Origin: a virus
Length of the DNA stretch: 64,000 nt
Strand: one strand, 5' to 3'
IMG/VR virus record: IMGVR_UViG_3300023116_000035
Location: 6,303 to 70,302 of that record
Made by a program: the position numbers and the translations under genes. Position 1 is the first letter of the stretch. The number at the start of each line of letters is the position of its first letter. Of this stretch, positions 10,601 to 63,297 are shown piece after piece. Below the pieces are notes generated by a model. It worked only from the letters and a program-made list of their open reading frames with translations. It was not told the DNA's origin and did no database searches.

Positions 10601-11563
10601 GCTAATACGCAAATTAGTATAAATGATGACACAAATATTATTTCTGCTAATTACAATGTAAATTTGCAGGCAAATAAGATTGTTGTAAAAATTGCTGGTC
10701 TGTCTTCTAATCTTGTTGGTGTTCAGCCTTTATGGAGAGCAGATGACCCAACAACTCTTGCGGTAGTTAATCTAGAGTCTGCTTTGACAAACAGCGCAAC
10801 GACTATGACTGTTTCGAGTACTGAAGAGCCGCCTTTTGATAAGGCTGGCTATCTGGCTATTGATGATGAAATTATTAAGTATTCATCCAAGTCTGAGAAT
10901 GAGTTTGCCGGTCTAGAAAGAGGCGTTTTGGGAACAACTGCTGCTGCTCACACTCAAGACTCTGCTGTCAGAGAGGTTCGGTATTGGGATCTTAAGTATG
11001 ACAAAGCTCCTGCTTATGAGGTTAGAGATCCTTTTATTACCGGTATTCGTTTTGAGGAGCCGGATGAGATTGATGTTCTTGTTTGGAATGCAGAAAATTA
11101 TGGTGCAGAACTGGCTATCGCTGCTAATGCAAATATTGACAAGGGGACATTTGTGTTTGCTGAAGGCACCGATCCTCTGACAGAGAAGGTGGCTTTTACT
11201 GCTGTTGCTGGGACACCTGTGTTGCTTACGGAGCAGAAGTCGCAAATTAAAGAGCAAAGTGCTAATTTAAGTGAAAACATCAGGCTTTACGGTCTGAAAG
11301 AGGTTGTGATTGAAAATCCATTTATTACTGATTTTGATCACGGTCAAAAAATCGCAGACTTTATTATTTCAAAAATGAGCGACCCTGTTCCTGTTATCAA
11401 TTTAAATACTTTATTGACACCTAAAGCAACGGTTGGTGATCGGGTAAGGATTACAGAACTGGATGCTTTTGATATAATTAATGGTGACTACTGGATTGTT
11501 TCTAAGAATATTTCTTACGGCGATTCACCTAGTCAGACGTTGATGTTAAGGAAGGTGGTGTAA
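7643..11563 (+). CDS. Large minor tail/baseplate protein with PA14-like and LamG/concanavalin-like domains
   Basis: 1306 aa; 'GGVRIYLEDTLILDD...NLVAGKPYKIRIE' (PA14-like); 'WSIELYVKP...WSHVVVTYDG...YYLNG' (LamG-like); two 'RG...A..H..G/S.V' repeats. Confidence 0.7.
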   Translation: MITSDIYGNTLTSTFNSKTTSASQRLKPKVLVDWLTSRNCTTLSVSVDSNNQHSSNAQGDLGYFFAPEQAMNGYDRQSFTWAVADAKDVDGNVIKADGNWFAMPADLSDDYEFGWWSGSTSTANTEATYGGYEFVDNPTAIFTFDSRKCNLIKVVTSEYYGQVHTYRLTVRSSDAGLPDPMYSEVITIPEDSYYYEHYLPVSLGHSTIDTVEVEIISTRNPQDYGRIQEVNPVYQVDVADDITSLSIENTRDLHVTEIPIAGSGSGSVSIGLDNTSKDYNVFNSSSAYGSYMKKNIKLQSTIGWQVQKHDSLFVEKEIRANISASATTITLDNTNDLPEGGSGEEYVMIIDPDNYTREYVLVSAKTDTYTLSISQRGFNNSIARNHAVGTKVVFETYEYPEYMPTYVNDWSAQSDNMSSGASSSDWSRFASEKIITNGFFLEKVTVADAVKNLLMRTNYPQADYSSLNTFSRSALSKNAILHMNFSERAIDRSGTSIPVKNGLRARFFAMPEGRFNKVKDIIADALDKQLSQLEKALGDKAFTVPDYTVNTVDINYDINNALDLVDFSFTDAGGETIDEYYNMVFDGYYTPPDSGDQVLAVGIAHGGVRIYLEDTLILDDYRIHPVETATYTDIESEVVNLVAGKPYKIRIECFHIISTNDIDGSLNVQDSDQFSIYLQYAIGSDPLSIVPIENVYTMAAIDRIGSVDAPYTSGSTDRNKTRNNGVYLGEANVGSDGGLVSDPENYSVRFTSDTYMRLPYDLSWDLNSSGSENHTGAWSIELYVKPTSSGFGGDYAYISSFDGASPTGGFEFFNSSASNGFSIETSSGIEQVSATDPLTSWEWSHVVVTYDGTYIKYYLNGDLQDTLEVAGTISSWNNLDIGFGGRNAYYLVGTGEVSPSNLKDFFCDQFLIYNKSLSTSEVADRYTEAVMQPLTVYPFLYGNEASAKDIIEEITLADLGRFYIDETGKAKYEHFYAFFEPTIDKHANTQISINDDTNIISANYNVNLQANKIVVKIAGLSSNLVGVQPLWRADDPTTLAVVNLESALTNSATTMTVSSTEEPPFDKAGYLAIDDEIIKYSSKSENEFAGLERGVLGTTAAAHTQDSAVREVRYWDLKYDKAPAYEVRDPFITGIRFEEPDEIDVLVWNAENYGAELAIAANANIDKGTFVFAEGTDPLTEKVAFTAVAGTPVLLTEQKSQIKEQSANLSENIRLYGLKEVVIENPFITDFDHGQKIADFIISKMSDPVPVINLNTLLTPKATVGDRVRITELDAFDIINGDYWIVSKNISYGDSPSQTLMLRKVV

Positions 11564-19092: not shown

Positions 19093-19274
19093 TGGATAAG
19101 CCCTTCTACACATTGGACGGTGCTGCTGCTGATATTGAAACTATCATCAGACTTCGTTCATGGATGGAAGATGAGGTGAAGAAGAAGCAAGGTGGGTTTA
19201 AGTCCACCTCTTTGATTACTGATTACGACGAAGAGACTGAAACTTTTGAATTCAAACTTCACTTCCACAGGTAA
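19092..19274 (+). CDS. Hypothetical protein
   Basis: ATG overlaps the helicase stop (TAATG). Confidence 0.5.
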   Translation: MDKPFYTLDGAAADIETIIRLRSWMEDEVKKKQGGFKSTSLITDYDEETETFEFKLHFHR

Positions 19275-20172
19275 CATACAAAAAGCGGTTCTTGAACTTT
19301 TAGATAGTCAAGGTGTAGAGGTACATACTCAGTCTGGTACTGAGGTTGCAATCTACTGTCCGTTTCACGACAATGTTCACAGCCCTGCCTGTTACATAAA
19401 TACTAAGACAGGCTTGTGGCAGTGTTTTAATCCTTCATGTGGTAAGAAGGGCAACTTCAGACAGTTGTACAAACACATGACTGGTAAAACATATGGTCGT
19501 GAGTGGATACTTGATCCTGTTAATTTGCAGAGAGAACTTGATCTAGCTCTTGTCATAAAAGATGGTACTGAAGAGTTGTCTACTGATTCGGTCCAGGTTG
19601 ATTACGAATCTGGTGAGGTTGATAACGTTCAGACTCTTGTCGATAGGGGGTACGATTTAGATATCCTTGAGTATTTTGAGATTGGGTATTCAAAAGTTAA
19701 AGACCGTGTTGTAATTCCTGTCCGTGACCCCCAGTATAAACTGGTTGGTTTGATTGGTCGTGCTATACATGACTGGCAAGAACCTAGATATCTATATAAT
19801 AAAGGTTTCAAGCGGGCAGACGTTCTATTCAACATCCAAAACGCTAAGCAATATGATAGCGTAATTATATGTGAAGGCAGTTTGGATGCTATCAAGGTTG
19901 CTCAGGCTGGCTTCAGGAATGTTGTGGCTACTCTGGGTGCTAAGGTGTCTCCGAATCAGGTCAGAATGATCAAAAAATATTTTGATGCGATCACGGTATT
20001 TTCTGACAATGATGACGCTGGTGCGGAGATGAGGCGTGCTATAATTGACGAGTGTCGTGGTAAGGAGATTTATACCGTTGCTATACCTGACGGTCTTAAA
20101 GATCCCGGCGACATGACAGACATACAAATTAAGCAAGCCATTACAAGCAAGCAATTAAACATAGGAGATTAA
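19246..20172 (+). CDS. dnaG: DNA primase (CHC2 zinc finger + TOPRIM)
   Basis: 'CPFHD...WQCF..C', 'ICEGSLDA', 'FSDNDDAG', 'KDPGD'. Confidence 0.92.
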   Translation: MNSNFTSTGNIQKAVLELLDSQGVEVHTQSGTEVAIYCPFHDNVHSPACYINTKTGLWQCFNPSCGKKGNFRQLYKHMTGKTYGREWILDPVNLQRELDLALVIKDGTEELSTDSVQVDYESGEVDNVQTLVDRGYDLDILEYFEIGYSKVKDRVVIPVRDPQYKLVGLIGRAIHDWQEPRYLYNKGFKRADVLFNIQNAKQYDSVIICEGSLDAIKVAQAGFRNVVATLGAKVSPNQVRMIKKYFDAITVFSDNDDAGAEMRRAIIDECRGKEIYTVAIPDGLKDPGDMTDIQIKQAITSKQLNIGD

Positions 20173-20891: not shown

Positions 20892-21413
20892 GTGGGTAAG
20901 ACTATTTGTTTGGATCTTGATGGGGTCGTTGCAGATCTCGTTGGCTCGATCAATAAAGAACTAGATGTTCGTGGGATGTCTGGGTTTGATTATTCTGATT
21001 GGGTTATTTCTCCGTATGAGGATGATTTGACTCGGGAGATTTTTGGTTCTCGGGTGTTTTGGAGAAATTTGAAGCCTTTTGTTGATTCGTGGTATGCGGT
21101 TAATGATTGGTGGGCGTTGGGTCATGATGTATTTTTTGTGACTGCTAGGTATTCTGATGCGGCTATTCGTTGGGCGAGGCCGTGGTTGGATATGTGGAAT
21201 TTTCAGTATTCTGATTTGTTTTTTGCTGAGATGGGCGATAAGTCTGGCTTGGTGCAGATGTTGAAGGCTGATGTGATGGTTGAGGATAATCCTCATGAGG
21301 TTGGGTTGTTGAGGGAGGCTGGTGTTGATGCGTATTTGATGCGGGCTTGGTATAATTCGGAGTTTTGGGAGGAGTTCCCTTCTGTGGGTTCTTTGTTGGA
21401 GGTGTTAGTGTGA
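20892..21413 (+). CDS. HAD-family 5'(3')-deoxyribonucleotidase-like
   Basis: 'CLDLDGVVAD', 'FVTAR', 'MVEDNP'. Confidence 0.8.
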   Translation: MGKTICLDLDGVVADLVGSINKELDVRGMSGFDYSDWVISPYEDDLTREIFGSRVFWRNLKPFVDSWYAVNDWWALGHDVFFVTARYSDAAIRWARPWLDMWNFQYSDLFFAEMGDKSGLVQMLKADVMVEDNPHEVGLLREAGVDAYLMRAWYNSEFWEEFPSVGSLLEVLV

Positions 21414-22600
21414 AGTTTGGTTCTTTGTTTGCTGGGGTCGGTGGTTTTGATCTTGGTTTTGAGGCTGCTGGTGGTGTGTGTTGCTGGCAGGTTGAGTGGG
21501 ATAAGCATTGTCAGCAGGTGTTGGGTTTTCGCTGGCCGACTGTGCCAAAGTTTGAGGATGTGCGTGATGTGTCTGGCTATGATTTGGAGCCGGTTGATGT
21601 TATTACGTATGGGTTTCCTTGTCAGGATCTGAGTGTTGCTGGCAAGCAGGCTGGTTTAGATGGCGACCGGTCTGGTTTGTTTTTTGAAGCCATTCGTATT
21701 ATTAAGGAGATGAGAGATGCAACAGATGGACAATTTCCAAGAGTCGTTGTGGCCGAAAACGTCGCCGGACTGCTCAGTGCCGACGGAGGCGATGCAATGG
21801 GGAGATGCCTTGACACGCTGGCCGAAGCAGGGGCGTTGGTCAGCGAGTGGTGTATGTTGGACTCACAGTGGTTCGGAGTTCCCCAGAGAAGAAGGCGCGT
21901 GTTCCTTGCCTCTGTCTTCGATTCTTCAGTTGCCGGAAGATGTCCCGACGAAATTTTCCCTCTCTGCGAAGGCGGCTCAGGGGATTTTGAACAGAGCGTC
22001 AAGGAGGGGCAAAGAGTTGCCGGTGGAGTTGAGGATGGCGTTGGAGTCGGTCGTTCGTTCAGAATGCTAGGTTTTGGTCATTATGCTGATGATGATTCTG
22101 CGTCTACGTTGAAGGCTAGGGATTATAAGGATGCTACTGATCTTGTTGTGATGCCTATTTCTGGTAAGGTGATTGGTCGTAAGGATTCTAATACGGGTAA
22201 TGGTCGGGGTTATGGTTTTGATGGTGATCCGATGTTTACTTTGACTACGGTTGATCATCATGCTGTTGCTGTTGTTCCTTTTGTGAAGTCTAGGAGGGCA
22301 CAGAATAAGGATGATTTTGAGACTTGGGTTGAGGGTGGTCCTGCGCCTACGTTGAATCAGTTTGATATGGGTGATATTCGTTCTACTGTGACGGTGTTGT
22401 CTGGTGATGCTGGTTCGTTGGGTGTGAGGAGGCTTACTCCGTTGGAGTGTGAGCGTTTGATGGGGTGGCCTGATGAACATACGTTGTATCGTTCTGATGG
22501 TAAGGTGACTTCTGATTCTCAGCGTTTTAAGATGTGTGGTAATGGTGTTGTGGCTCCTGTTGCTCAGTGGGTTGCTAAACAGATTGGGGCGTTGTTGTGA
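21410..22600 (+). CDS. C5-cytosine DNA methyltransferase (main chain)
   Basis: SLFAGVGG, GFPCQD, ENV, PQRRRRVF, RRLTPLECERLMG, GNGV. Confidence 0.93.
   Translation: MKFGSLFAGVGGFDLGFEAAGGVCCWQVEWDKHCQQVLGFRWPTVPKFEDVRDVSGYDLEPVDVITYGFPCQDLSVAGKQAGLDGDRSGLFFEAIRIIKEMRDATDGQFPRVVVAENVAGLLSADGGDAMGRCLDTLAEAGALVSEWCMLDSQWFGVPQRRRRVFLASVFDSSVAGRCPDEIFPLCEGGSGDFEQSVKEGQRVAGGVEDGVGVGRSFRMLGFGHYADDDSASTLKARDYKDATDLVVMPISGKVIGRKDSNTGNGRGYGFDGDPMFTLTTVDHHAVAVVPFVKSRRAQNKDDFETWVEGGPAPTLNQFDMGDIRSTVTVLSGDAGSLGVRRLTPLECERLMGWPDEHTLYRSDGKVTSDSQRFKMCGNGVVAPVAQWVAKQIGALL
21717..22070 (+). CDS. Nested alternative-frame polypeptide within C5 MTase (M.EcoHK31I beta-like)
   Basis: AAGGAG 7 nt before ATG; 'LSSILQ...VPTKFSLSAKAAQGILNRASRRGKELP..L..AL'; local loss of the G/T third-position bias. 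Confidence 0.7.
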   Translation: MQQMDNFQESLWPKTSPDCSVPTEAMQWGDALTRWPKQGRWSASGVCWTHSGSEFPREEGACSLPLSSILQLPEDVPTKFSLSAKAAQGILNRASRRGKELPVELRMALESVVRSEC

Positions 22601-31486: not shown

Positions 31487-31653
31487 AGAAAAATTTACAA
31501 ACTCCTGAAAACGGAGAAAATATCAGATAGGATTTCCATGCTGAACTTTTACACCTTCAAGGACAGAAGGGAGGGGGATGAAAATCAAACGTGTTGAGGA
31601 GTCTTTGGAAAAGATTTCTGAACTAGGTGAATACACCTTGTATAAGGTTAACA

Positions 31654-32748
31654 ATGATGACGAACCGATTGTTTTGGAGAGCACTGTCAAAGAGTAAGGC
31701 TGACGGATACGGTTACGCATCATATAGGATTTCCTCTGGTCTTAGACACGCCGGTCTACCTGTGTCTGAGCCAGAGGATTTTCTTATTTCAGACAGAAGC
31801 AAAGAGTTTGACATTTTTGTTTCTATGCAGGATGGTTTAGTGCTTGAACCAAGAATGCCAGTCCAACAGGGTGATGTCCTTGTTAATAACTGCTTGCCCG
31901 TAGATTTTAAGCTTGCTGATTGTTACAATGTTGGTTTTTCTTATTGGGAAACCACAAAGATGCCGGGGTCTTGGATTCCTAGGTTGAATGAGTGTGATGA
32001 GATTTGGACTACTTCGAAGTGGGCTGGTGATGTCTTTAAAGAAAATACCGGACATGAGAATGTTCATTCTTTTAAGTTAGGAATTGAATCTGATTTGTTT
32101 TGGTCAAACTCTTGGATTCCTGATGAGCCTTTTACGTTTCTTCATGTTGGTAGTCCGTCAACTAGGAAGAACACCCAGATGGCTGTAGATGCTTTTATGA
32201 GGACGTATGGGCATCGGAAGGACTTTCGGTTGATTGTTAAGTCTATGGGGCCTCCTGATGCCCGCATACGGGATTCTGGAATGAATCACGGTGCGATCAC
32301 TAATCATGACAGGATTCAGGTTATTGATTGGGAATTGTCTGAGCCTGATCTTGCTGACTTGTATAGGTCTGCTCATTGTCTTTTGTACCCTACTATGGGG
32401 GAGGGTTGGGGGATGATTCCTTTTGATGCTATTGCTTGTGGAACCCCTACTATTTGCACTAATGCTACTGCTTGTACCGAGTATGCAGAGTTGTCTGTGC
32501 CTTTGGATTTTGAGTGGTCTAATGAAGGAATGAGCGGTATCTACGAGACTGGTGGTAAATGGGCTAAACCTAGTATGGATGATCTTGTTGACAAGATGCA
32601 TTACGTTGTTGATAATTATGAAGAAGTTAAGCAACATACATTGGAAGGTGCTATAATTATTCATAAGGATTATTCTTGGCATAATGTTGTCCAAGAATAT
32701 AAGGATCGTATATGGAAAATATTGAGAGATCAGTCTCAGGCGGTATAG
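31654..32748 (+). CDS. Glycosyltransferase (GT-B, GT4-like)
   Basis: 'YWETT', 'FLHVG....RKN', 'LYPTMGEGWGMIPFDAIACGTPTI'. Confidence 0.88.
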   Translation: MMTNRLFWRALSKSKADGYGYASYRISSGLRHAGLPVSEPEDFLISDRSKEFDIFVSMQDGLVLEPRMPVQQGDVLVNNCLPVDFKLADCYNVGFSYWETTKMPGSWIPRLNECDEIWTTSKWAGDVFKENTGHENVHSFKLGIESDLFWSNSWIPDEPFTFLHVGSPSTRKNTQMAVDAFMRTYGHRKDFRLIVKSMGPPDARIRDSGMNHGAITNHDRIQVIDWELSEPDLADLYRSAHCLLYPTMGEGWGMIPFDAIACGTPTICTNATACTEYAELSVPLDFEWSNEGMSGIYETGGKWAKPSMDDLVDKMHYVVDNYEEVKQHTLEGAIIIHKDYSWHNVVQEYKDRIWKILRDQSQAV

Positions 32749-35464: not shown

Positions 35465-35821
35465 ATGTTCAGCATTTCAAAGGTAGACCATTTCCCAGAG
35501 ATTACTCGTCAGGGTAGAACTTCTGAAGAACTTCAAGCAATTATTAATGCGCTTGAAGATTCCGCTAGCAAGGGCGAGCGTTTCTGTATTGGTGGTATTG
35601 ATTCAGGCAATGCCTACAATTCGATGCAACAGCGCATTAGAGCACAGGCTAAGAAATTGAATCTCAAAGTCACTATCCGCTACGACAAAGATCAGGCTAA
35701 TCTTTACTTCAAGGCTTCTCGTATGGGAGCAGAGAAGGTTTCTACAGAATCAGTTGAGGAACTTGGTGTGACTGCAAATGAGGCTGGTGCAAAGCCTGCT
35801 TCAAAGCGTGCTACTAAGTGA
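35465..35821 (+). CDS. Small basic protein, RGR-family paralogue
   Basis: 'TRQGRTSEELQAI...KGERF...RIRAQAKKLNLKVTIRY' aligns with ORFs 56089 and 56958; AGGAG RBS. Confidence 0.7.
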   Translation: MFSISKVDHFPEITRQGRTSEELQAIINALEDSASKGERFCIGGIDSGNAYNSMQQRIRAQAKKLNLKVTIRYDKDQANLYFKASRMGAEKVSTESVEELGVTANEAGAKPASKRATK

Positions 35822-53848: not shown

Positions 53849-55530
53849 TCAGTATACGGTTTGGAAGTTGTTTATAGGTCATGAAGATGCAAAGGGTACA
53901 CCTGAGGAAACTGCTGAGATCTATAATGATCTGATCCTAGAGGCTTTAAATGAGAAACTGGCACCGGCTTTTATTGATTTGGAGTGTGAGGATTACGGCA
54001 GTCCTAATGCTGTCTTTGATGTGGAGGATTTAGATGATTGATGAAATGTATATAGTTATGCATGGAAATCCTTTTGAGGGCTATCAGTTTTTCGGTCCTT
54101 TTGGAACTATAGATGATGCACAGGATTGGGGTGAATCTAATTCTGAATTAGAGTGGTACTTGGTTCGATTAGAAGAGCCTGAGGGTGCTGATTACATTAA
54201 GGGTGGCTATTACTGGTCAGATGCGGCTAAAGAGATTGTTCAGGAAATGAGGAAGGCTAATGGGTCTTGATTTCAGCGAGTATAAGGCTGACCCTAATTT
54301 TTGTGTCTATTGTAGGCGTAGAGATATAGGTATTCATGACAATTATGTCATGGAGAAAGATGTGATTGTTGTGACTGTTTCTTGCAACATTTGTGATGGG
54401 AAATGGACTGAATGTTATACGTTGAGTTCTGTATCTTATGACGACAACTTTGTTGCAAAGACTGCTGAACAATTGGATCATGAGTATCGTATTGCGAATA
54501 TGACTGAGGAGGAAATTTATGGAAGATAATTATATTCCGGATTGGTTTGATGCGATTCTTCGTATCAGATACAACTCTGACGTTCTCATTGAGGAATTGC
54601 AAAAGGATGGAATTGAGAATGTTACTATTGATGACATTATGATCGCCATTGATCGCAAGTTGACTGATCTTTATGGTCATCGTAGTAGTCGTGAATTTGT
54701 TGTGTTTGATTCTGATGGAGAGGAGTGGTAATGGATAATCGGTTGTTGAATGCTCAGAGTACTAAGATTGCTTCTTGGTTGAAAGATAATGGTTACACTT
54801 CACTGGTTGAGTGGGGTTTGGATTCTGATTATTGTATGGATGATGATGGGATTTGGTACGATGACAATGGTAATGCAGTGGATATCTTCTCCCAAGCTTA
54901 CTATGCAATGGAGGCAGCAAATGAAAGTGTGTAAAGATTGCGGTTCTGATGCGGTTACTGAGATCGCTTATATCATCTTGAATGATAACGATTATGTTAG
55001 TAGGTCTGGCATATTTGTTTGTGATATTTGTACTATGAATCATCCTAGAAGCGAGGGGATTGGGGTGGTTGATCAAAATAAGGCACCGATAAGGGGAATA
55101 TAATGACTGAAACGGGTGAGTATCTTAATGATTTGGAGTGGTTGCATTTTTTGGTTTTAGAGATGCAGGATGATGGATATGAGTTACCTGCCGGTGATTA
55201 TGATATGGTAATCAAAATCGTAGAGGATGTTAGGGAATACTTCCTGCTTAAATGGGTGAAGGAAAATGTCTGAGAATTCTGGCGGGGTGAAAGTATTTAT
55301 ATCTATAGATAGATACATAGATATAGATACGTATCTCAGACTAGGATACGCCCCAATTCAGATTCTGAATTAAGAAAATACGTACAGAATAACGTATAAC
55401 GTTCTTGTGTTGTGTGTTCAAATAAAGGTAAATATATTAAAGAAAGAGACTAGTTTTTAGCATTTATCACATAAAATCGTAAAAAACCTTAGGATTATTT
55501 ACTTTTCCTATGTATGGCTGCGTCAATTAG

Positions 55531-55588
55531 GCGGGTATGGGTTGTGTTCCCTCTATCTATAGAGAGAAACACCTATACCCGCTTTTTT
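55531..55588 (+). terminator. Long hairpin with U-tract ending the + strand block
   Basis: GCGGGTAT...ATACCCGC then T6. Confidence 0.65.
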
Positions 55589-56088
55589 GCGTTATGCCCT
55601 AATTTTCCTAAGGGTTTAAATATAAGTGTGTCTATCCCCTATCTATAGGTGGGCACATAAAGCCGCCATAAAGTTTATTATGATTTGTATCATAAAGTTC
55701 AGGCGGGGATATGGGTGTATCTGTACTACTAGAATAGATAGTAGATATGACCCCGGCATAAAGTTTGCCATAAAGTCTTGGATGAATTTCAGATTTTACA
55801 TTGGTGTAATCTGTTAACTAGATTTTTCTCTATCTTTCATTAGTTAGTTACTAAATTGTTTTGCTTGTGTTAGGTTAGTTTTGTTACAGTGCTAACCTAA
55901 CGCATTCAACTTGGAGCAGTATGTTAGGTTAGTTTCGAACCAGTGCTAACCTAACGAACCAGGCCATCTAACGCAAAAGACCCTCACCTAACTTGGACCG
56001 GTATCTGTCCTTGTTAGATGAGGGTCTAGTGCCATCGGCTGTGTTAGCCGGAGCCTCCCACCTGGTTTGTTAGGTGGGGTTTGTTAGG

Positions 56089-56373
56089 TCACGCCTTGCG
56101 TGTTACCTGAGGCACACCGGCGGGCGACCAACGGACACCGACCCGGATGTTAGCGACCTTAGCCGCTGACCGGATTTGGTTTCCGTTAGTTACCTGCTCC
56201 GCTTTGGTTGTGGCCGTTAGTTCGGCAATGCGAGCGATGTCCCCAACCTTTAGGTTAGAAAGGACCTGCTCTGCCAGTGCCTGAACTAACTCAGAGGGCT
56301 TGCGACCCCGCTGTGTTACCTCAACCTCAGCTTCGGTGATGACCTCGAATGAGAAGTTCGTCATGTTAGACAA
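56089..56373 (-). CDS. RGR-family small protein (start may be ATG 56364)
   Basis: Clearly paralogous to ORF 56958 (shared 'TQRGR.PSE', 'GNQIRS.AK.A', 'RWSPAGVPQ'). Confidence 0.85.
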   Translation of the reverse strand: MSNMTNFSFEVITEAEVEVTQRGRKPSELVQALAEQVLSNLKVGDIARIAELTATTKAEQVTNGNQIRSAAKVANIRVGVRWSPAGVPQVTRKA

Positions 56374-56888
56374 ACATCCTTTCCCCGGCTTGTTAGCCGG
56401 ACTGGAGGTGTACCGACGTTAGGTGGATACCCATTCCCAACGTGCTTCCCTAACTATTTGCGTCTGTTAGGTCCAGACGTACCATGCTGTCTCTCCCCGG
56501 TCTGTTAGATGAGGGTCAACTAACAGGCATGGCAAGGGCCGGAGAGGAAAAATCGAACTCTTTAGTTAGAAAGGAGCGTCGCCCCGGAGGGCTACGCCTA
56601 CCTTATCAAGTTAGTTCGGGTAAAGGTAGTGTGTTAGCCATTACTCAGATATTTCTTGTTAGGTAGGCCCTGGCTCTAATGTTAGATGCGTTAAAGTCCG
56701 GACAAATATGTTAGGTTAGATTCGGTCTAGTACTCCCTAACATAAAGCCCTGGCCAGCGTTAGAATATACACTAAAGTTAGATGAGTATGTTAGGTTAGA
56801 ATTGCGGGTGTACAAATTCGACGAAGAGCAGTCGGAACACCCGCCGACCTAACCTAACAGACTTACCTAACCTAACGTATCGACCTAA

Positions 56889-56919
56889 CAAAGAAAGACC
56901 CACCCCGAAGGGTGGGTCT
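56889..56919 (-). terminator. Rho-independent terminator
   Basis: AGACCCACCC-cgaa-GGGTGGGTCT with adjacent A-rich run (UUCG loop and U-rich tail on minus strand). Confidence 0.8.
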
Positions 56920-56957
56920 AACTTAGAGGGAAGGAATGTTAGAAGGGGGGAACTAAC

Positions 56958-57224
56958 TCAGTCCTTCATCTCGATTTGGGGGACACCGGCTGGCGACCAG
57001 CGGATACCAACCTTGCGACCGGCAATCTTTGCACCGGAGCGGATTTGGTTGCCCTTTGTCACTTTGTCAGCATCGTTAGTTGCACGCAACTCTTCGATGC
57101 GGATGATGGCACCCTTTGACTGTGGTTCCAGAATCATTGCGATGGCCTGTGCCTCTTCTGATGGCTGACGACCACGCTGTGTGGTTTCCACATCGTCTTC
57201 GCTGATAAGTTCGAAGTTGAACAT
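56958..57224 (-). CDS. RGR-family small protein
   Basis: AGAGGA RBS; paralogue of ORF 56089. Confidence 0.85.
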   Translation of the reverse strand: MFNFELISEDDVETTQRGRQPSEEAQAIAMILEPQSKGAIIRIEELRATNDADKVTKGNQIRSGAKIAGRKVGIRWSPAGVPQIEMKD

Positions 57225-57266
57225 TGTTTCCTCTCTGCCGAATCAGTTGTTCATCGACTAATAGAT

Positions 57267-57295
57267 ACACTAATGTGTGTTAGCAGCTGACACAA
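57267..57295 (-). promoter_or_regulatory. Sigma70-like promoter TTGTGT-17-TAGTGT with CTAAC in spacer
   Basis: Same position and spacing as in the other cassettes. Confidence 0.55.
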
Positions 57296-57566
57296 GGCTG
57301 GCGGAAAGTTTTTTGTTAGGGGCCTTTTGTTAGAACTGAATACATTTCAGTGTTAGTCCGAATAAAGTCGAACGTTGTGTTAGATATGAGCTAAAGTTAG
57401 GTCTATTTGTTAGGTTAGAACCGCTGGTGTTCAACGCCGAAGCATATCTGATCGGCACACCAGCCCAACTAACCTAACAGGGCAGAACTAACCTAACATG
57501 TCTTGACTAACAAAAAACCCGCCCTCTGTGTTAGAAGGCGGGCTTTATGTTAGGTGTTGGGCTTTG

Positions 57567-58052
57567 TTAGTATTCCCGACAGAACACGACTGCGTAGTTG
57601 TCGTCGTGAGGGTGTCTAACAACTGACCACTTTGCGTAGGAATGAATGTTACGAAGCGCACCATGCATTTTGATTAGTGGTTTTGCACTTCCACCTAACA
57701 CATCGATTGGGAAAATAACATGAGGGTATCGGGTGATTGCCTCAGCCACCGCAATCCGGCTGTTATTTCCAAGAAACTGAACTTTGTTAGGAAGCTTTTC
57801 AAATCCCCTCAATGTCCACAAACAGACGGCTGCTAACGTGCCGGTTTGGTTCCAGGGAGTAATCCAACCAGCATCTACCGCTTTGTTAGCAATGGTTCGG
57901 ATTTCTTCTGCTTGAATGAAATCCTCAAACGGACTATGAGCGACAAAAATCTTGCCGTCTAACTCAGTCACAATGTTATCTTTTATGCTAACAGTGAGTG
58001 AGCTAACTTTGATGTTCGGGTGGGCTTTTGGTTTGTTTGGGTTTGTGTTCAT
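57567..58052 (-). CDS. Hypothetical protein, probably leaderless
   Basis: ATG 7 nt after a -10 box; own terminator at 57512-57543. Confidence 0.75.
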   Translation of the reverse strand: MNTNPNKPKAHPNIKVSSLTVSIKDNIVTELDGKIFVAHSPFEDFIQAEEIRTIANKAVDAGWITPWNQTGTLAAVCLWTLRGFEKLPNKVQFLGNNSRIAVAEAITRYPHVIFPIDVLGGSAKPLIKMHGALRNIHSYAKWSVVRHPHDDNYAVVFCREY

Positions 58053-58059
58053 AGACACA

Positions 58060-58089
58060 AACTTATCAAGTTAGATCAGCCTAATGCAA
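58060..58089 (-). promoter_or_regulatory. Promoter TTGCAT-18-TAAGTT with CTAAC in spacer
   Basis: Direct reading of the minus strand. Confidence 0.6.
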
Positions 58090-58309
58090 TAGTGTTAGAC
58101 ATAAAGTTGGAATTTTTTGTTAGGTCCGAATAAGTCGATGTTATGTTAGAATATGCACTAAAATAACGGTGCTGCGTTAGGTTAGATCTGCGGGTGTGCA
58201 ACTTGGGTTTGTTGTTGCGGAACACCCGCCGTTCTAACCTAACACGCTGGTTCGACCTAACGCAAAAGACCGCCCCCTTGTGTTAGGAGGCGGCCTATGC
58301 GGGGGTATG

Positions 58310-58594
58310 TTAGAGGTCGGGGATTTCTACGTCGTAGAGGTGGCGGGCGCAGTCAGGACAGCATGACCGTGAGCAGTCCACCGAGGTAATCCAGTAGGTT
58401 AGGCCGTTCGGCATTGCCTCTGAGTTAGAGATGTCGGGACGCTCGCAGGTGCGGTTGATTGTCTCCCACACCATGTCGTAGTAGTTGAATGTTAGAACGC
58501 CGGGACGGTTGGGGACTTCGTGTCCGCATTCGAGGGTCACCGTGTCGGGTGACTGATAGGCTGGGTCAGTTAGTTTTTTGAGGTCGTAGGTCAT
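58310..58594 (-). CDS. Cys-containing hypothetical protein (MTYDLKK...)
   Basis: GAAAGGA-CCTAAC-ATG; terminator at 58264-58296. Confidence 0.7.
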   Translation of the reverse strand: MTYDLKKLTDPAYQSPDTVTLECGHEVPNRPGVLTFNYYDMVWETINRTCERPDISNSEAMPNGLTYWITSVDCSRSCCPDCARHLYDVEIPDL

Positions 58595-58605
58595 GTTAGG
58601 TCCTT

Positions 58606-58800
58606 TCAGACGGTTGGTGGGATGTAGGGGACATAGTTGCCGTTGCGCTGTTCGCAGATTGTTAGGTCGGTGACCCCGAACAGGTCGCGTGCGTTGCGAA
58701 TGTAGGTTTCGCAGGACTCTAACGAACCTACATGCTGGACATACTGTCCGTTGTGAACGTAGAGGGTTCGGGGGATGCGCTTTTTGTTTGGTGTGTTCAT
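58606..58800 (-). CDS. Hypothetical protein
   Basis: 64 aa; candidate leaderless start after TAGGGT. Confidence 0.6.
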   Translation of the reverse strand: MNTPNKKRIPRTLYVHNGQYVQHVGSLESCETYIRNARDLFGVTDLTICEQRNGNYVPYIPPTV

Positions 58801-58997
58801 ACACCAAACCCTAATCTGTTAGTTCAGCGTATTCCTACAATGTTAGCCATAAAGTTGATATTTTTTGTTAGACATAAAGGTGTATTGTGTGTTAGATTTG
58901 CACACTAAATCCGGCCTAGTTTGTTAGGTTAGTTCTGAACCAGTTCGGGCTAACGAAAAAGACCCCCCATTTCTGGGGGGTCGAATTCGACGGTAGA

Positions 58998-59459
58998 CTA
59001 GTTCGCAATGAATGCGAACGAATCTTCATCCAATCGTGTCCACGACACCTTGCACGATGCTCCGATACGGTCACCGAATCGGGGAGCGTCACCGTTGAGA
59101 GTGTGCAACCGGAATAGGTTAGAAAGCGTGGTGGTGGCATTCTTAGTGTGCTTCTCTGTCCACACTTCCACGTTGGCAATGTCCCGAACCCGAATGACAA
59201 CATGCGGGGTCTTCGGGTTAGTTGCAAGAATGTCGGCAACGTGCGAAGTGTGAATCTGAGTTGTGTCTCCCCATTCTGCCATTCTGTTAGCAACGTGGTC
59301 AGCGACACCGACACGAACCAATGCGGCAATGGCTGACCATGATGCAATGGCTTCGTTAGAAGTGGGAGCACCCTTGCGACTTAACACTAGGTCTCTATCT
59401 TCACGCTTTACCGTTACACCTTGTCGGGTGATGCTTGCGTTAATTGAGTTGATATTCAT
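58998..59459 (-). CDS. Hypothetical protein (MNINSINASIT...)
   Basis: AGAGGA RBS; terminator at 58956-58982; N-terminus similar to ORF 60596. Confidence 0.75.
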   Translation of the reverse strand: MNINSINASITRQGVTVKREDRDLVLSRKGAPTSNEAIASWSAIAALVRVGVADHVANRMAEWGDTTQIHTSHVADILATNPKTPHVVIRVRDIANVEVWTEKHTKNATTTLSNLFRLHTLNGDAPRFGDRIGASCKVSWTRLDEDSFAFIAN

Positions 59460-59496
59460 TTGGTTCCTCTCTGTTCGGTACTTCCGAACTACGTTC

Positions 59497-59526
59497 ACGT
59501 TATCAAATGGGGTTAGGTCTTCGCAA
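59497..59526 (-). promoter_or_regulatory. Promoter TTGCGA-18-TAACGT with CTAAC in spacer
   Basis: Direct reading of the minus strand. Confidence 0.5.
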
Positions 59527-59772
59527 CTTAACATAAAGCTGATTCTTTCCGTTAGTCGAATAAAGTTGGTTACCATGTTAGTTCCATAAAGGCAACCTAT
59601 TAGTTAGGTTGCATACTCAACTTCTTGTTAGGTTGCATGTTAGAATTGCGGGTGTGTAACCGCTGCGCGATCAATTATACACACCCGCCTAACCTAACAT
59701 ACGTATCTAACCTAGCTGCGGTAACTAACAAAGCCGCCCCGTTAGGAGCGGCTCTGTCAGGGAAGGATCTTG

Positions 59773-60006
59773 TTAGTCGTCAGAGATCATCTCTGTTAGT
59801 TCTGCTTCTGTTAGTTGGTATGGATCAACTGCGTTAGCAATCCGGGCAACAGCCTCTTCCATACCTAACTGAAAGGCTCGATCAAGTTTCTCGTTAGCCT
59901 CACGCTCCACTATGTTAAGTGTGTTCGTTAGGTAGATGAGCGATGCCCATGCTCCTAACGCTGCTGAGAATGCTACGGTGACGGTGATTGTTAGTACGAT
60001 GAACAT
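59773..60006 (-). CDS. Small membrane-anchored protein
   Basis: GAAGGAAA-CTAAC-ATG; N-terminal hydrophobic helix. Confidence 0.7.
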   Translation of the reverse strand: MFIVLTITVTVAFSAALGAWASLIYLTNTLNIVEREANEKLDRAFQLGMEEAVARIANAVDPYQLTEAELTEMISDD

Positions 60007-60047
60007 GTTAGTTTCCTTCCTGTCAGGGGGTTGACCTGACACCTACG

Positions 60048-60076
60048 AATGTAGTCTGTGTTAGGTGTCAAGTCAA
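60048..60076 (-). promoter_or_regulatory. Promoter TTGACT-17-TACATT with CTAAC in spacer
   Basis: Near-consensus sigma70 boxes. Confidence 0.7.
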
Positions 60077-60096
60077 CCTTTCCGACGAATGTTATG

Positions 60097-60303
60097 TTAG
60101 AGACCCCATGCGTCACGGTGACGCTTTGCGATGGCCTCGGCCTGTGCGTTAGATACGCAGTAGAGGTGGTGGATCACGCTGTCGGAGGAGTCTCCGTTAG
60201 GTGACTGGTACCAGAGTTCGATGATCGTGTCGATGACAACGACGGCTGTTAGGTCACCTTTGACGCTGACCTTTGGGACTGTTATGTTAGGGCGGGTAGT
60301 CAT
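60097..60303 (-). CDS. Hypothetical protein (MTTRPNIT...)
   Basis: GAAGGAA-CTAAC-A-ATG. Confidence 0.7.
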   Translation of the reverse strand: MTTRPNITVPKVSVKGDLTAVVVIDTIIELWYQSPNGDSSDSVIHHLYCVSNAQAEAIAKRHRDAWGL

Positions 60304-60350
60304 TGTTAGTTCCTTCCTGTTGTGGTGGGTACTTCCCACCGACAAAGAAC

Positions 60351-60379
60351 AACCTACTCTGTTAGATACGGAATGTCAA
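60351..60379 (-). promoter_or_regulatory. Promoter TTGACA-17-TAGGTT with CTAAC in spacer
   Basis: Consensus -35; CTTTATG immediately upstream. Confidence 0.75.
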
Positions 60380-60561
60380 CATAAAGTCTGAATGTTATGT
60401 TAGCCATGTCTACTCAAATTGTTATATCTGTTAGGTTAGTTGCGTGGGTGGCATAAAGGTTAGAGTTTGTGTTAGTTCTCCATAAAGTTCGCACGTTGTG
60501 TTAGATGTGCTCAAATATGAGCTAAATGTTAGGTTAGTTTCGCCCTAGTAGGGGCGCACCT

Positions 60562-61297: not shown

Positions 61298-61906
61298 TTA
61301 AAGGATGGGGTGTTTGTCTTCGGGTGGGTTTTTGCGAATTTTGGGGATTTGGAAGTGTCGGGGGATAGGCGATACTGCTTTTTCTGTTGGATAGACAATA
61401 GGGGTGTGTTTTGGGGTGTGTCTCATTTTGCGGGGTTTCTTGTCTTTCAGCAGGATCGTGTCGATTCTGTTGCTTCTTAGGTAGTCTACGACTCTTTTTT
61501 GGTCTTCATAGGTGTCGTCGTGTTTGCCGATGACTCTGGTTATTCCTGAGTTGGCGATGAGTTTGGCGCAACTGTAACATGGTGAGCCGTTGATGATTAT
61601 GGTTGCTTCTTGTCGTGCTATGGGGTCTGCCCACATGATGGCGTTTGCTTCTGCGTGTGTTGCAATGCAGTTGTCGTATATTGAGCCTGATGGCGAGTTT
61701 TGTTGTGCTCTGGGACATGCTCCTTGTGTGCAATGGCGTGCTCCCGGCGGTGACCCGTTGTATCCTTGACTGATTAGTCTTTTGTTGCTGCCAATTATGA
61801 CGGCGAAATATTGCCGTTTTGAGCATGTGGAGAATATTGGTGCGAGTGCGTCACATGCTTGAAGCCATTTTTGTTCGTGTGGTTTTATGATCGTGTTTTC
61901 GTACAT
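61298..61906 (-). CDS. dCMP deaminase
   Basis: 'STC.KR', 'GYNGSP', 'HAEANA', 'SPCYSC'. Confidence 0.92.
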   Translation of the reverse strand: MYENTIIKPHEQKWLQACDALAPIFSTCSKRQYFAVIIGSNKRLISQGYNGSPPGARHCTQGACPRAQQNSPSGSIYDNCIATHAEANAIMWADPIARQEATIIINGSPCYSCAKLIANSGITRVIGKHDDTYEDQKRVVDYLRSNRIDTILLKDKKPRKMRHTPKHTPIVYPTEKAVSPIPRHFQIPKIRKNPPEDKHPIL

Positions 61907-62250: not shown

Positions 62251-63297
62251 TCAAGATTGTAGTCCGGTGAAAGCCGTCACATCTTTAGCCCACTCTATCC
62301 TTGAATTGATAATGTCCCAGTATTCGTCAGTAAGTTCAAAGCCTGTAACGTTACAGTTCTCTAGTATAGCAGCAACCGCTGTAGTACCGGAGCCTAAAAA
62401 GGGATCAAACACATGGCCTTGTGGTGGGGTAACAAGACGAATCAGATACCTCATCAGGTCGATAGGTTTCACAGTAGGGTGATTATTTGATACACCTGAA
62501 GCGTTTTTCTCCGACTTTGATGCTTTTGCACTATAAATAAACGGAGGGATGTCGTTAACCCCGTCCCAAATAGCGTCGTAGAAAAAATCTGATGCACCAG
62601 GGTACTGCTTTTCTACAGTTTTTACTCCACAATCGTCTTCGCATTGTGTTTCTGTGCAGTTAACGGAGTGGCTGAACAGCACATTTGATGGAAATCGCCC
62701 AGTTACATACTTATCTTCTGGTTTTATGCCTTCAACACGATCTCTATCGGCAAAACCACCAAAGTTATTGTACACTTGGATCTTAATTTGCTCATCACCG
62801 ACCCTTGTAGCCTCAATATTGAAAGCTCCAACGCCCCATTTTTCTACATTCTTGTAAATTGGGCCTTTAAATGGCTTTCTTGCAAGCACAATAGGCTCAT
62901 GTGCTGGCTTTAGACAGGTTCCCCACCCATTCCATTGCTGTTGTAAGTCACTGCCGTCCTCAAAGCGTGTTCCTAGATTGACAGATTTGGGGAAACCGCT
63001 ACCATATATCCAATGAAGGCTGTCTTTTACTTCGAAGCCTGCTTCTTCAATCGCAACTGCGATGCGATGGTACGTTCTTGATGCACTAAAAGATAGTAAG
63101 TGTCCGCCCGGCTTAAGCGTGCGGAGGCATTCTGACCAGAACTCTGTGTTGTAAGCAATCCCACTTCTATCCCATCCTTTGTTGATAAAGTTGATTTCAT
63201 ACGGAGGGTCCGTAACAATTGAATCAAACGTATTATCAGGGATATTTTTTACTAGGTCAAGAGAATCGCCATATTGAATGTTAAAATTTTTAGACAT
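62251..63297 (-). CDS. N6-adenine/N4-cytosine DNA methyltransferase (beta class)
   Basis: 'TDPPY' before 'HPTVKP' and 'DPFLGSGTT'. Confidence 0.92.
   Translation of the reverse strand: MSKNFNIQYGDSLDLVKNIPDNTFDSIVTDPPYEINFINKGWDRSGIAYNTEFWSECLRTLKPGGHLLSFSASRTYHRIAVAIEEAGFEVKDSLHWIYGSGFPKSVNLGTRFEDGSDLQQQWNGWGTCLKPAHEPIVLARKPFKGPIYKNVEKWGVGAFNIEATRVGDEQIKIQVYNNFGGFADRDRVEGIKPEDKYVTGRFPSNVLFSHSVNCTETQCEDDCGVKTVEKQYPGASDFFYDAIWDGVNDIPPFIYSAKASKSEKNASGVSNNHPTVKPIDLMRYLIRLVTPPQGHVFDPFLGSGTTAVAAILENCNVTGFELTDEYWDIINSRIEWAKDVTAFTGLQS

Follow-up and report, generated by a model that had tools for sequence, protein, structure and literature searches.

Covarying intergenic hairpins in an uncultured siphovirus-like phage most likely form part of a new gene-control module

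What is the role of the strong inverted repeats that separate small gene cassettes in the uncultured virus record IMGVR_UViG_3300023116_000035? We addressed this question in a stretch of 64,000 nucleotides (hereafter the window), which covers bases 6303-70302 of the 70,302-bp record, itself rated 67% complete. A first-pass annotation had described four inverted repeats between cassettes and had offered three readings of them: an attC-like recombination site, a dyad operator or a small RNA. Our analysis indicates that the hairpins, which all lie in a motif-saturated island recognised by word counts and G+C (55843-60540, minus strand), most likely form part of a new gene-control module. Among the three readings the dyad operator fits best, as an inferred rather than a demonstrated role.

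The four elements are present as annotated. The arrangement GTTAGGTTAG-N4-GCGGGTGT...ACACCCGC-N4-CTAACCTAAC occurs at 56790-56858 and 58176-58243, the copy at 57409-57478 carries the covarying pair GCTGGTGT/ACACCAGC with both arms changed, and a variant whose left decamer is interrupted lies at 59639-59698. We refer to the corresponding hairpins, all on the minus strand, as hp1 (core GCGGGTGT...ACACCCGC, 56804-56844), hp2 (the compensated variant, 57423-57464), hp3 (58190-58229) and hp4 (59648-59688). They stand upstream of gene I, gene H, gene G and gene D, respectively, the first two of which belong to a family named RGR after a conserved Arg-Gly-Arg motif. Folded as single-stranded DNA, all four take the proposed shape on either strand: GTTAGGTTAG pairs with CTAACCTAAC in an outer stem, an internal loop of roughly 4 x 4 nt comes next, and within it lie a GCGGGTGT/ACACCCGC stem and a paired interior that varies. 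Fold energies range from -17.6 to -26.6 kcal/mol and z-scores from -4.1 to -9.4 over the four copies on either strand (-8.0 and -6.0 for hp1), and the observed energy was reached by 0 of 200 shuffles in each of the 8 folds. A strain variant of hp4 found in DNA run X2 has 5 differences, keeps 16 pairs and folds at -24.8 kcal/mol on both strands. When the whole 70,302-bp record was searched with a covariance model, these four were the only full-length matches (57-65 bits, E 1e-9 to 1e-11): 56768-56849 for hp1 (65.3 bits), 57387-57469 for hp2 (57.2 bits), 58154-58234 for hp3 (61.4 bits) and 59612-59693 for hp4 (59.8 bits), the last of which has its ortholog at 11436-11477 of the related locus L003.

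The idea that structure is conserved here while sequence varies was strongly supported by two alignments of 28 and 58 copies. With the covariance model we collected 58 distinct copies (70 matches) from uncultured viral contigs, and the conserved unit proved to be a core of 38-44 nt, GCNGGYGT...ACRCCNGC (that is, GC[G/A/T]GG[T/C]GT ... AC[A/G]CC[C/T/A]GC), with a stem of 13-17 bp and usually a small paired tip. In the 58-copy alignment A3, which was fitted to the model and hence leans towards structure, 93.9% of the stem cells pair compared with 78.8% after shuffling, and two-sided changes are found in 120 cells compared with 39.1 in shuffles, a value reached by 0 of 500 shuffles; sliding the register lowers pairing to 31-47%. 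The hand-made alignment A1 of 28 sequences, with a helix of 13 pairs, gave the same picture: 91.1% paired cells vs 76.8% shuffled, 64 two-sided changes vs 20.3 (again reached by 0 of 500 shuffles) and only 29-49% pairing in slid registers. In A3, the two variable positions of the otherwise conserved stem show nothing but fully compensated states (GC 39/AU 16/UA 3 and UA 43/CG 14). Among the seven hairpins common to L128 and L129, five are identical and two carry one compensated G:C to A:T pair each, and copies inside one genome differ throughout the inner stem. The base preceding the hairpin is also nearly fixed, being G in 56 of the 58 copies. We conclude that the hairpin structure is under purifying and compensatory selection.

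The family is confined to a group of related viruses. Model R1, run against 100 sources, matched only the window and its relatives, and no match at E <= 1 was obtained in 91 unrelated loci; in the window record and in two complete relatives, the matches are confined to the island. A composite pattern covering the G variant only gave 0 matches in 185,579 prokaryote species genomes and 19 loci on 18 viral contigs (13 new). Pattern scans and a protein search identified further GTTAG-type lineages (L003+L009 and L109+L064) and, more distantly, the lineages L127-L130, whose RGR protein is about 35% identical to that of the window. A metagenome scan for the decamer palindrome returned at least 119 loci, almost all of them arthropod- or eukaryote-type (TTAGG)n-like repeats; among the matches listed only L009, L064 and L109 are relatives, and more may exist.

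Comparison of these lineages revises the earlier picture of the conserved unit. The islands of L127-L130 are G+C-richer, as in the window, but lack GTTAG; they are instead enriched in TGTAAT, TGTAAG or TGTAAC, often as the palindrome TGTAAYATTACA. Since relatives swap the flanking words and yet keep the core, which is present in all lineages found despite the change from TGTTAG to TGTAAT, TGTAAG or TGTAAC, the outer "stem" is best regarded as two inverted copies of the lineage motif. The earlier description of four inverted repeats thus stands, while the outer arms are not the conserved unit and, as shown below, the element is not symmetrical. When the islands of the window (55843-60540), L127 (2000-8700), L135, L136, L139 and L144 were compared, the island word was TGTTAG in the window and TGTAAT/TGTAATATTACA, TGTAAG or TGTAAC in the relatives. 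On the coding strand all lineage words fit YTWACA; the hairpin core, the TTKAGT box introduced below and the unit CTTTATG are unchanged.

The asymmetry comes from a fixed partner on the downstream side. A TTKAGT box, always at a distance of exactly 27 nt, comes after the hairpin in every one of the distinct copies (58 of 58) and is spelled TTTAGT in 35, TTGAGT in 10 and TTTAAT in 6 of them; the spacer reads AATT-CTAACCTAAC-N13 in the window lineage and holds GTAATATTACAC-type words or unrelated sequence elsewhere. In the window, the boxes are TTTAGTG at 56770-56776 for hp1, TTTAGC at 57390-57395 for hp2, TTTAGT at 58157-58162 for hp3 and TTGAGT at 59615-59620 for hp4, all on the minus strand. 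On the coding strand, matches to the full model reach 42-73 bits, whereas on the opposite strand only the hairpin part is recognised, with 20-35 bits. The distances to other features vary: where an upstream terminator was found (17 of 26 copies) it stands 7-83 nt away, and on the downstream side the next ATG follows at 71-594 nt. Based on the fixed box, the one-strand model score and the variable terminator distance, the hairpin marks the upstream end of a composite module that has a direction and goes with the unit downstream of it; the hairpin is rigidly coupled to the downstream box and not to the upstream terminator.

The placement and polarity given in the first-pass annotation hold for all four copies. 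Each hairpin of the window lies 38-49 nt past the T-run of the intrinsic terminator of the preceding minus-strand gene (4/4), namely of gene H upstream of hp1 (56896-56919), gene G upstream of hp2 (57514-57546), gene F upstream of hp3 (58267-58296) and gene C upstream of hp4 (59733-59753), the last three with CTAAC in the loop, and a CTAAC array comes after each hairpin. The flip in polarity is likewise real: one side of each hairpin bears 3-5 motif copies of opposite sense. The motif copies nearest to the hairpin stand at +5 and +10 on either side. Beyond these, 1-6 decamers are arrayed along the upstream arm with a period of about 17-18 bp, and the downstream arm has the motif at fixed +22, +41 and +67. 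Each inverted decamer GTTAGGTTAG (56790-56799 and similar sites) contains TAGGTT, so the upstream arrays aim -10-like hexamers at the hairpin; TAGGTT apparently also serves as the -10 of the gene B promoter (TTGACA-N17-TAGGTT, about 60350-60380, minus strand). As for the terminators of L003, L109 and L127 compared with those of the window, their loops likewise hold the lineage motif, CTAAC in the window and TTACA-type words in L127.

The module is also stable in position. A hairpin module stands upstream of the RGR genes in 12 of 12 cases (six lineages, both genes), showing that hairpins are retained at orthologous positions.

How might such a module work? We tentatively favour a DNA-level upstream control element, a dyad or cruciform, within a composite terminator/promoter module, although we hold this reading short of an even chance. 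On the coding strand the module begins with the intrinsic terminator of the previous gene and zero to six inverted copies of the lineage motif, followed by the GC-clamped hairpin of 38-44 nt (GCNGGYGT...ACRCCNGC), the exact 27 nt (AATT-CTAACCTAAC-N13 in the window lineage) and the TTKAGT box; more motif and CTTTATG units, then a sigma-A-like promoter or leader, and finally the gene, complete it. The dyad, or a cruciform extruded by supercoiling, would act as DNA upstream of the promoter, and hairpin and box would be recognised together by a factor conserved across the phage group, possible candidates being a phage protein (one of the RGR type, for example) and some form of the host's RNA polymerase. 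In this way the hairpin module would set or insulate the transcription of each cassette and, as a by-product, the repeated modules would supply homology for cassette shuffling.

Such a module would resemble, by analogy, two systems described in other phages. Arbiol et al. 2010 (PMC2839356) and Comeau et al. 2014 (PMC4122927) present the PeSLs of T4-like phages as stem-loop and promoter repeats with documented cassette shuffling; in one of five subclasses the stem-loop lies just upstream of the -35 box, and overall the stem-loops vary in position relative to a textbook sigma-70 promoter, contain G-T pairs and have been shown to terminate transcription. The likeness to the PeSLs lies in an intergenic stem-loop composite, small ORFans and a plastic region with cassettes shuffled between relatives; layout, ORFan content and plasticity agree, whereas the promoter and terminator roles are here predicted and the box is not a clear sigma-70 element. 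Compared with the PeSLs, our element differs in a sequence-conserved and almost purely Watson-Crick stem base, in the invariant 27-nt spacing to a non-canonical box with separate canonical terminators upstream, and in its host phage, a siphovirus-like relative of actinophages rather than a T4-like myovirus, with an island saturated by a lineage hexamer. The second system is the ESAS/SAS pair of Cluster K mycobacteriophages, for which Pope et al. 2011 (PMC3203893) describe 17-bp inverted repeats directly upstream of a 13-bp SAS at the translation start, and give the function as unknown. ESAS shares with our element imperfect inverted repeats, a variable spacer and a tight link to a short asymmetric box, as well as a single orientation before a subset of genes, retention at orthologous genes across subclusters and an actinophage-type host. 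The differences lie in a box that stands here 71-594 nt upstream of the ATG, in unrelated sequences, and in a spacer between the arms that is here itself selected to pair.

A number of observations weigh against the DNA-level control element. Some cassettes have a class-2 site (described below) or nothing in place of the hairpin, so the hairpin is not obligatory for expression, and loops of 9-14 nt make spontaneous cruciform extrusion harder. No sigma-70 region 2 was found in the window record or in four relatives, two of them rated 100% complete, and PF00940 (T7-type single-subunit RNA polymerase) had no match in the window record, a weak absence given that the control was found in no genome. 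Read as a -35, the box lacks a consistent TAnnnT 16-19 nt downstream, and read as a -10 it ends in T in only 17 of 28 copies. In the fixed register of the 58 copies, the mismatch balance favours the coding strand (G.T 18 vs A.C 3), which leans towards RNA, and an RNA-library contig (56547-56838) runs into hp1 and covers most of it. As for the TTKAGT box, we rejected it as a sigma-70/sigma-A -35 or -10 element since the partner element is inconsistent. A sigma-70 promoter scan returned 5 sites compared with 6.8 expected from shuffles; promoter-like or leader sequences upstream of several cassettes were read by eye.

The mismatch balance in fixed register and the RNA-library contig over hp1 are among the points that speak for the strongest of the alternatives, an element that acts as RNA. 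The hairpin would then be transcribed by terminator read-through or from the -10-like TAGGTT in the upstream GTTAGGTTAG, and would serve as a fail-safe terminator, stabilise an RNA end or be processed in the manner of RNase III sites. Its constant location in a same-sense intergenic gap just past a terminator would suit such a role; in some relatives 4-16 nt separate the hairpin from the stop codon upstream of it and no canonical terminator was detected, the 3' flank is mildly T-rich (columns 52, 53 and 55 are T in 14, 17 and 23 of 28), and hp4 of the window looks like a G.T intermediate between two perfectly paired variants. The expression data bear on this point within limits, as the RNA-library contigs are of low depth, cannot resolve RNA ends, may include DNA carry-over and are uninformative where coverage is missing; they cover mostly coding parts and rarely hairpins. 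One contig end, at 60471 just past a CTTTATGG unit, is a hint only.

Most of the remaining evidence points away from RNA. Unlike an intrinsic terminator, the hairpins are not followed by a direct U-tract (their 3' flanks read AATTCT, AGATCT or GGTTCT), the terminator scan of the window lists 0 of the 4, and canonical terminators stand upstream of them. The exact 27-nt link to the downstream box, set against the variable distance to the upstream terminator, speaks against an RNA-level element. In the 58 copies 679 of 742 stem cells are Watson-Crick and 18 (2.4%) are G.T, 11 of those at the terminal pair, whereas terminator-like hairpins of the same islands, collected by a crude scan that includes some coding-region hairpins, have 46 G.U in 497 pairs (9.3%). 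Free folding gives no advantage to the coding strand, which does better in 8 copies, worse than the other strand in 14 and equally well in 4, and shows the opposite bias to the fixed register (3 G.U on the coding strand vs 11 on the other); since the two disagree, we draw no conclusion on strand bias. In the L128 lineage, the hairpins have no -10-like sequence upstream, and Rfam returned no match at gathering score and four sub-threshold matches, none on a hairpin. The small RNA proposed in the first-pass annotation finds no support, with no promoter before the hairpin, no terminator after it, few G.U pairs and no Rfam family. Considering all of this, we regard an RNA-level role as unlikely and lean towards a hairpin that acts at the DNA level.

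Cassette order bears on the next two alternatives. It is not invariant among relatives: it reads A B C / D / E F / G / H / I in the window, a / b / A / E G / C / B / H / I in L109 and D-like.. / D / E / X F / H / I in L003+L009, where a block of terminator, hairpin module and gene X sits between E and F, adjacent in the window. Homologues that covary and an order that is not invariant mean that both of the refuting conditions set in the first-pass annotation turn out in favour of its reading. One could therefore see the hairpins as passive modules in the manner of the T4 PeSLs (the precedent of PMC2839356 and PMC4122927), with homologous recombination shuffling, inserting and deleting cassettes within a repeated block, since cassette order and content vary and the modules are 65-78% alike throughout. 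This likeness also means that breakpoints cannot be placed at the hairpins. The window and L109 are clearly homologous as far as gene G and its terminator; past that point every module resembles every other, and the rare TTTAGC box that the two have in common is no more than suggestive. Some changed junctions have no hairpin at all, the part common to E-F and E-G being only the joint of ribosome-binding site, CTAAC and ATG, and neither joints nor circles were seen in the contigs (not reads) of 4 runs. More importantly, passive exchange leaves the covariation, the conserved stem base and the exact 27-nt spacing unexplained. Exchange of a PeSL-like kind within the repeated modules is plausible, and it is compatible with a DNA-level control element rather than exclusive of it; as an explanation of the hairpins in its own right, it seems to us improbable.

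A dedicated recombination site, attC-like or HUH-type, at which a recombinase would cut and join a folded strand, was the least supported of the three earlier proposals. An attC site is a folded imperfect palindrome between cassettes; its outer words are of the GTTRRRY/RYYYAAC type, and an unpaired spacer sets them apart from an inner stem with a variable tip. Our elements share this layout superficially: comparable outer words are set apart by 4 unpaired nt from an inner stem, the terminal structure is variable, and the elements lie between cassettes of varying order, one of which (gene X of L003+L009) is part of a terminator-hairpin-gene block. However, attC reads 5'-RYYYAAC (R'') ... GTTRRRY (R')-3', while the copies of the window read 5'-GTTAGGTTAG ... 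CTAACCTAAC-3' on either strand (4/4), that is 5'-GTTAG...CTAAC-3', the opposite polarity. The outer words are the island-wide lineage motif, and relatives use TGTAAT-, TGTAAG- or TGTAAC-type or unrelated flanks with the core kept. In integrons most cassettes lack a promoter and depend on a shared one, Pc; here a terminator stands upstream of all four hairpins and several cassettes carry promoter-like sequences of their own. No Phage_integrase (PF00589; control found in 14/14 genomes) and no Resolvase (serine recombinase) match was found in the 70.3-kb record or in four relatives, two of them rated 100% complete, and no Y1_Tnp (HUH, PF01797) match in the window record, the sole genome searched for it. 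Because no recombinase was found, the polarity is reversed, some changed junctions lack a hairpin and the modules before both RGR genes are kept, we consider a dedicated recombination site very unlikely. A replication, priming or packaging signal, such as a single-strand initiation hairpin for the DnaG-like primase and DnaB-like helicase that the phage encodes along with a DnaE-like polymerase, would make use of strong and nearly perfect hairpins, but several copies per genome, each tied to a cassette of one island and oriented with transcription, with nothing linking them to genome ends, leave it the least probable of all.

Three further systems invite comparison. The promoters of the N4 virion RNA polymerase have a stem of 5-7 bp and a 3-nt loop at about -12, and their extrusion needs negative supercoiling; like ours, they are DNA hairpins in a region of small early genes, but the window stems measure 13-17 bp and the PF00940 search gave its weak absence. 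A giant open reading frame and the genome size had suggested to us an N4-like phage with hairpin promoters for a virion RNA polymerase, an identity that we rejected because the giant frame matches tape-measure PHROGs. Cluster A mycobacteriophages carry roughly two to three dozen stoperators per genome, 13-bp sites to which the immunity repressor binds; the CTAAC motif, not the hairpin, resembles them in being many short asymmetric sites oriented with transcription, and differs in being a word of 5-6 bp that recurs about every 34 bp within a single island, in a phage for which no integrase was found. REP/REPIN elements with their RAYT differ in that our record has no PF01797 match, the copies diverge in the inner stem, and the G-variant pattern is absent from the prokaryote genomes. 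Literature searches on conserved inverted repeats of phiC31 gave nothing relevant, and searches by sequence string, which did not extend to supplements, returned, among the papers listed, insect-telomere papers only, with no match to the core strings there. The element is thus a variety of phage intergenic regulatory cassette for which no Rfam family or literature match was found.

Going one step further, the cruciform or dyad might be the nucleation and recognition centre of an undescribed system of transcription control. Stem base (GC-clamped) and TTKAGT box would be recognised by one conserved factor, and the co-evolving hexamer (TGTTAG, TGTAAT, TGTAAG or TGTAAC) would recruit a protein coat outward over the cassette. 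The change of the lineage word suggests, from sequence comparison, a binding specificity that co-evolves with its sites. We put this extension forward as a long shot; if true, each orphan gene would be an insulated, switchable and exchangeable unit. In a variant of this idea, the hairpin would give a hairpin-dependent promoter for an unrecognised form of polymerase.

The phage itself is an uncultured siphovirus-like phage of a marine or salt-marsh clade related to actinophages. It encodes a DnaE-like polymerase, a DnaB-like helicase and TerL, with the DnaG-like primase at 19246-20172, and its nearest TerL and polymerase are those of Streptomyces siphoviruses of about 130 kb (37-40% identity). 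Nucleotide searches of a phage collection with the island and with 20 kb gave no match, and the element was found in 0 of 3 records of Cluster BE-type Streptomyces phages. The loci 21365-22600, 61298-61906, 62251-63297 and 31627-32748 hold genes for two DNA methylases (C5 cytosine and N4/N6), a dCMP deaminase and, by PHROG match, a glycosyltransferase; because of these the phage DNA may be modified, which could affect the reading of the motif or of the hairpin.

The island stands out from the surrounding DNA, with a G+C of 0.49 compared with about 0.38 in the neighbouring phage DNA and the rest of the window, and with 99 GTTAG (about 7.5 expected) and 39 CTAAC (about 4.1 expected). The motif occupies every free position, including terminator loops and the spacers between Shine-Dalgarno and ATG; in several genes CTAAC lies in that spacer (CTAACATG at 56364, 58594, 60006 and 60303). 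The gene content consists of nine small minus-strand genes without Pfam or PHROG match, which are probably early or host-takeover genes. A second unit, CTTTATG, occurs 20 times on the minus strand of the whole record, 14 of them at 55656-60487, and is enriched in the islands of all relatives too; five copies cluster just past the 3' end of the island (55656-55775), with no minus-strand gene downstream. In several cassettes a small conserved leader hairpin with GGAAGTACC at its centre lies just 5' of the ribosome-binding site (59474-59489 and 60325-60339 in the window, also in L003 and L109). Genes E (start 58800) and G (start 58052) have no Shine-Dalgarno sequence, begin with MNT(N)PNK and start about 7-10 nt past a TAnnnT hexamer (TAGGGT, TAAGTT); they therefore look like leaderless mRNAs, a feature that would agree with an actinobacterial host. 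Between the island and the convergent plus-strand genes (55285-55650) there are repeated words of the TATCTATAG type, together with an inverted repeat of 29 nt (55285-55313 / 55552-55580).

The class-2 sites consist of inverted motif copies around a short asymmetric core. One of them (58923-58954, minus strand) replaces the hairpin before CTAACCTAAC-N13-TTTAGTG, and further copies lie at 55869-55901, 55923-55955 and 56710-56741. Their core, nACTGGTTCGAWW on the coding strand, resembles a tRNA T-arm (GGTTCGA), and the tandem pair at the 3' end of the island is kept in two lineages (window 55869-55955, L109 5995-6111).

Turning to the genes next to the hairpins, gene H (56958-57224, minus strand, 88 amino acids) and its paralogue gene I (56089-56364) form the RGR pair, which all lineages compared carry at the island's 3' end; a third, more distant copy usually lies outside the island, and further RGR loci are at 35465-35821 in the window and at about 8700-9066 (minus strand) in L127. 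The AlphaFold model of the RGR protein is confident (pLDDT 90.7) and has no clear structural relative; Foldseek gave weak matches only, to an RNase E subdomain (E 0.014). No match to a PDB sequence was obtained, no DNA-binding fold was seen in the AlphaFold and Foldseek analyses, and a tblastn search of the phage collection with protein H found nothing. Gene D (58998-59459, minus strand, 153 amino acids, downstream of hp4) is an orphan. Gene G (57567-58052, minus strand, 161 amino acids) is likewise an orphan, with no relative of its protein found in viral contigs; it forms its own cassette in the window and directly follows gene E in L109.

Phage "ORFan islands" collect host-takeover and anti-defence genes, and how such genes are expressed, insulated and shuffled is understood mainly for the T4 PeSLs. 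The module described here would be a second composite module, of different build, in an uncultured phage clade related to actinophages. Hairpin, 27 nt and box together make a defined DNA object with which a new regulator or a new mode of polymerase recognition may be found, and viromes can be searched for such islands with the covariance model.

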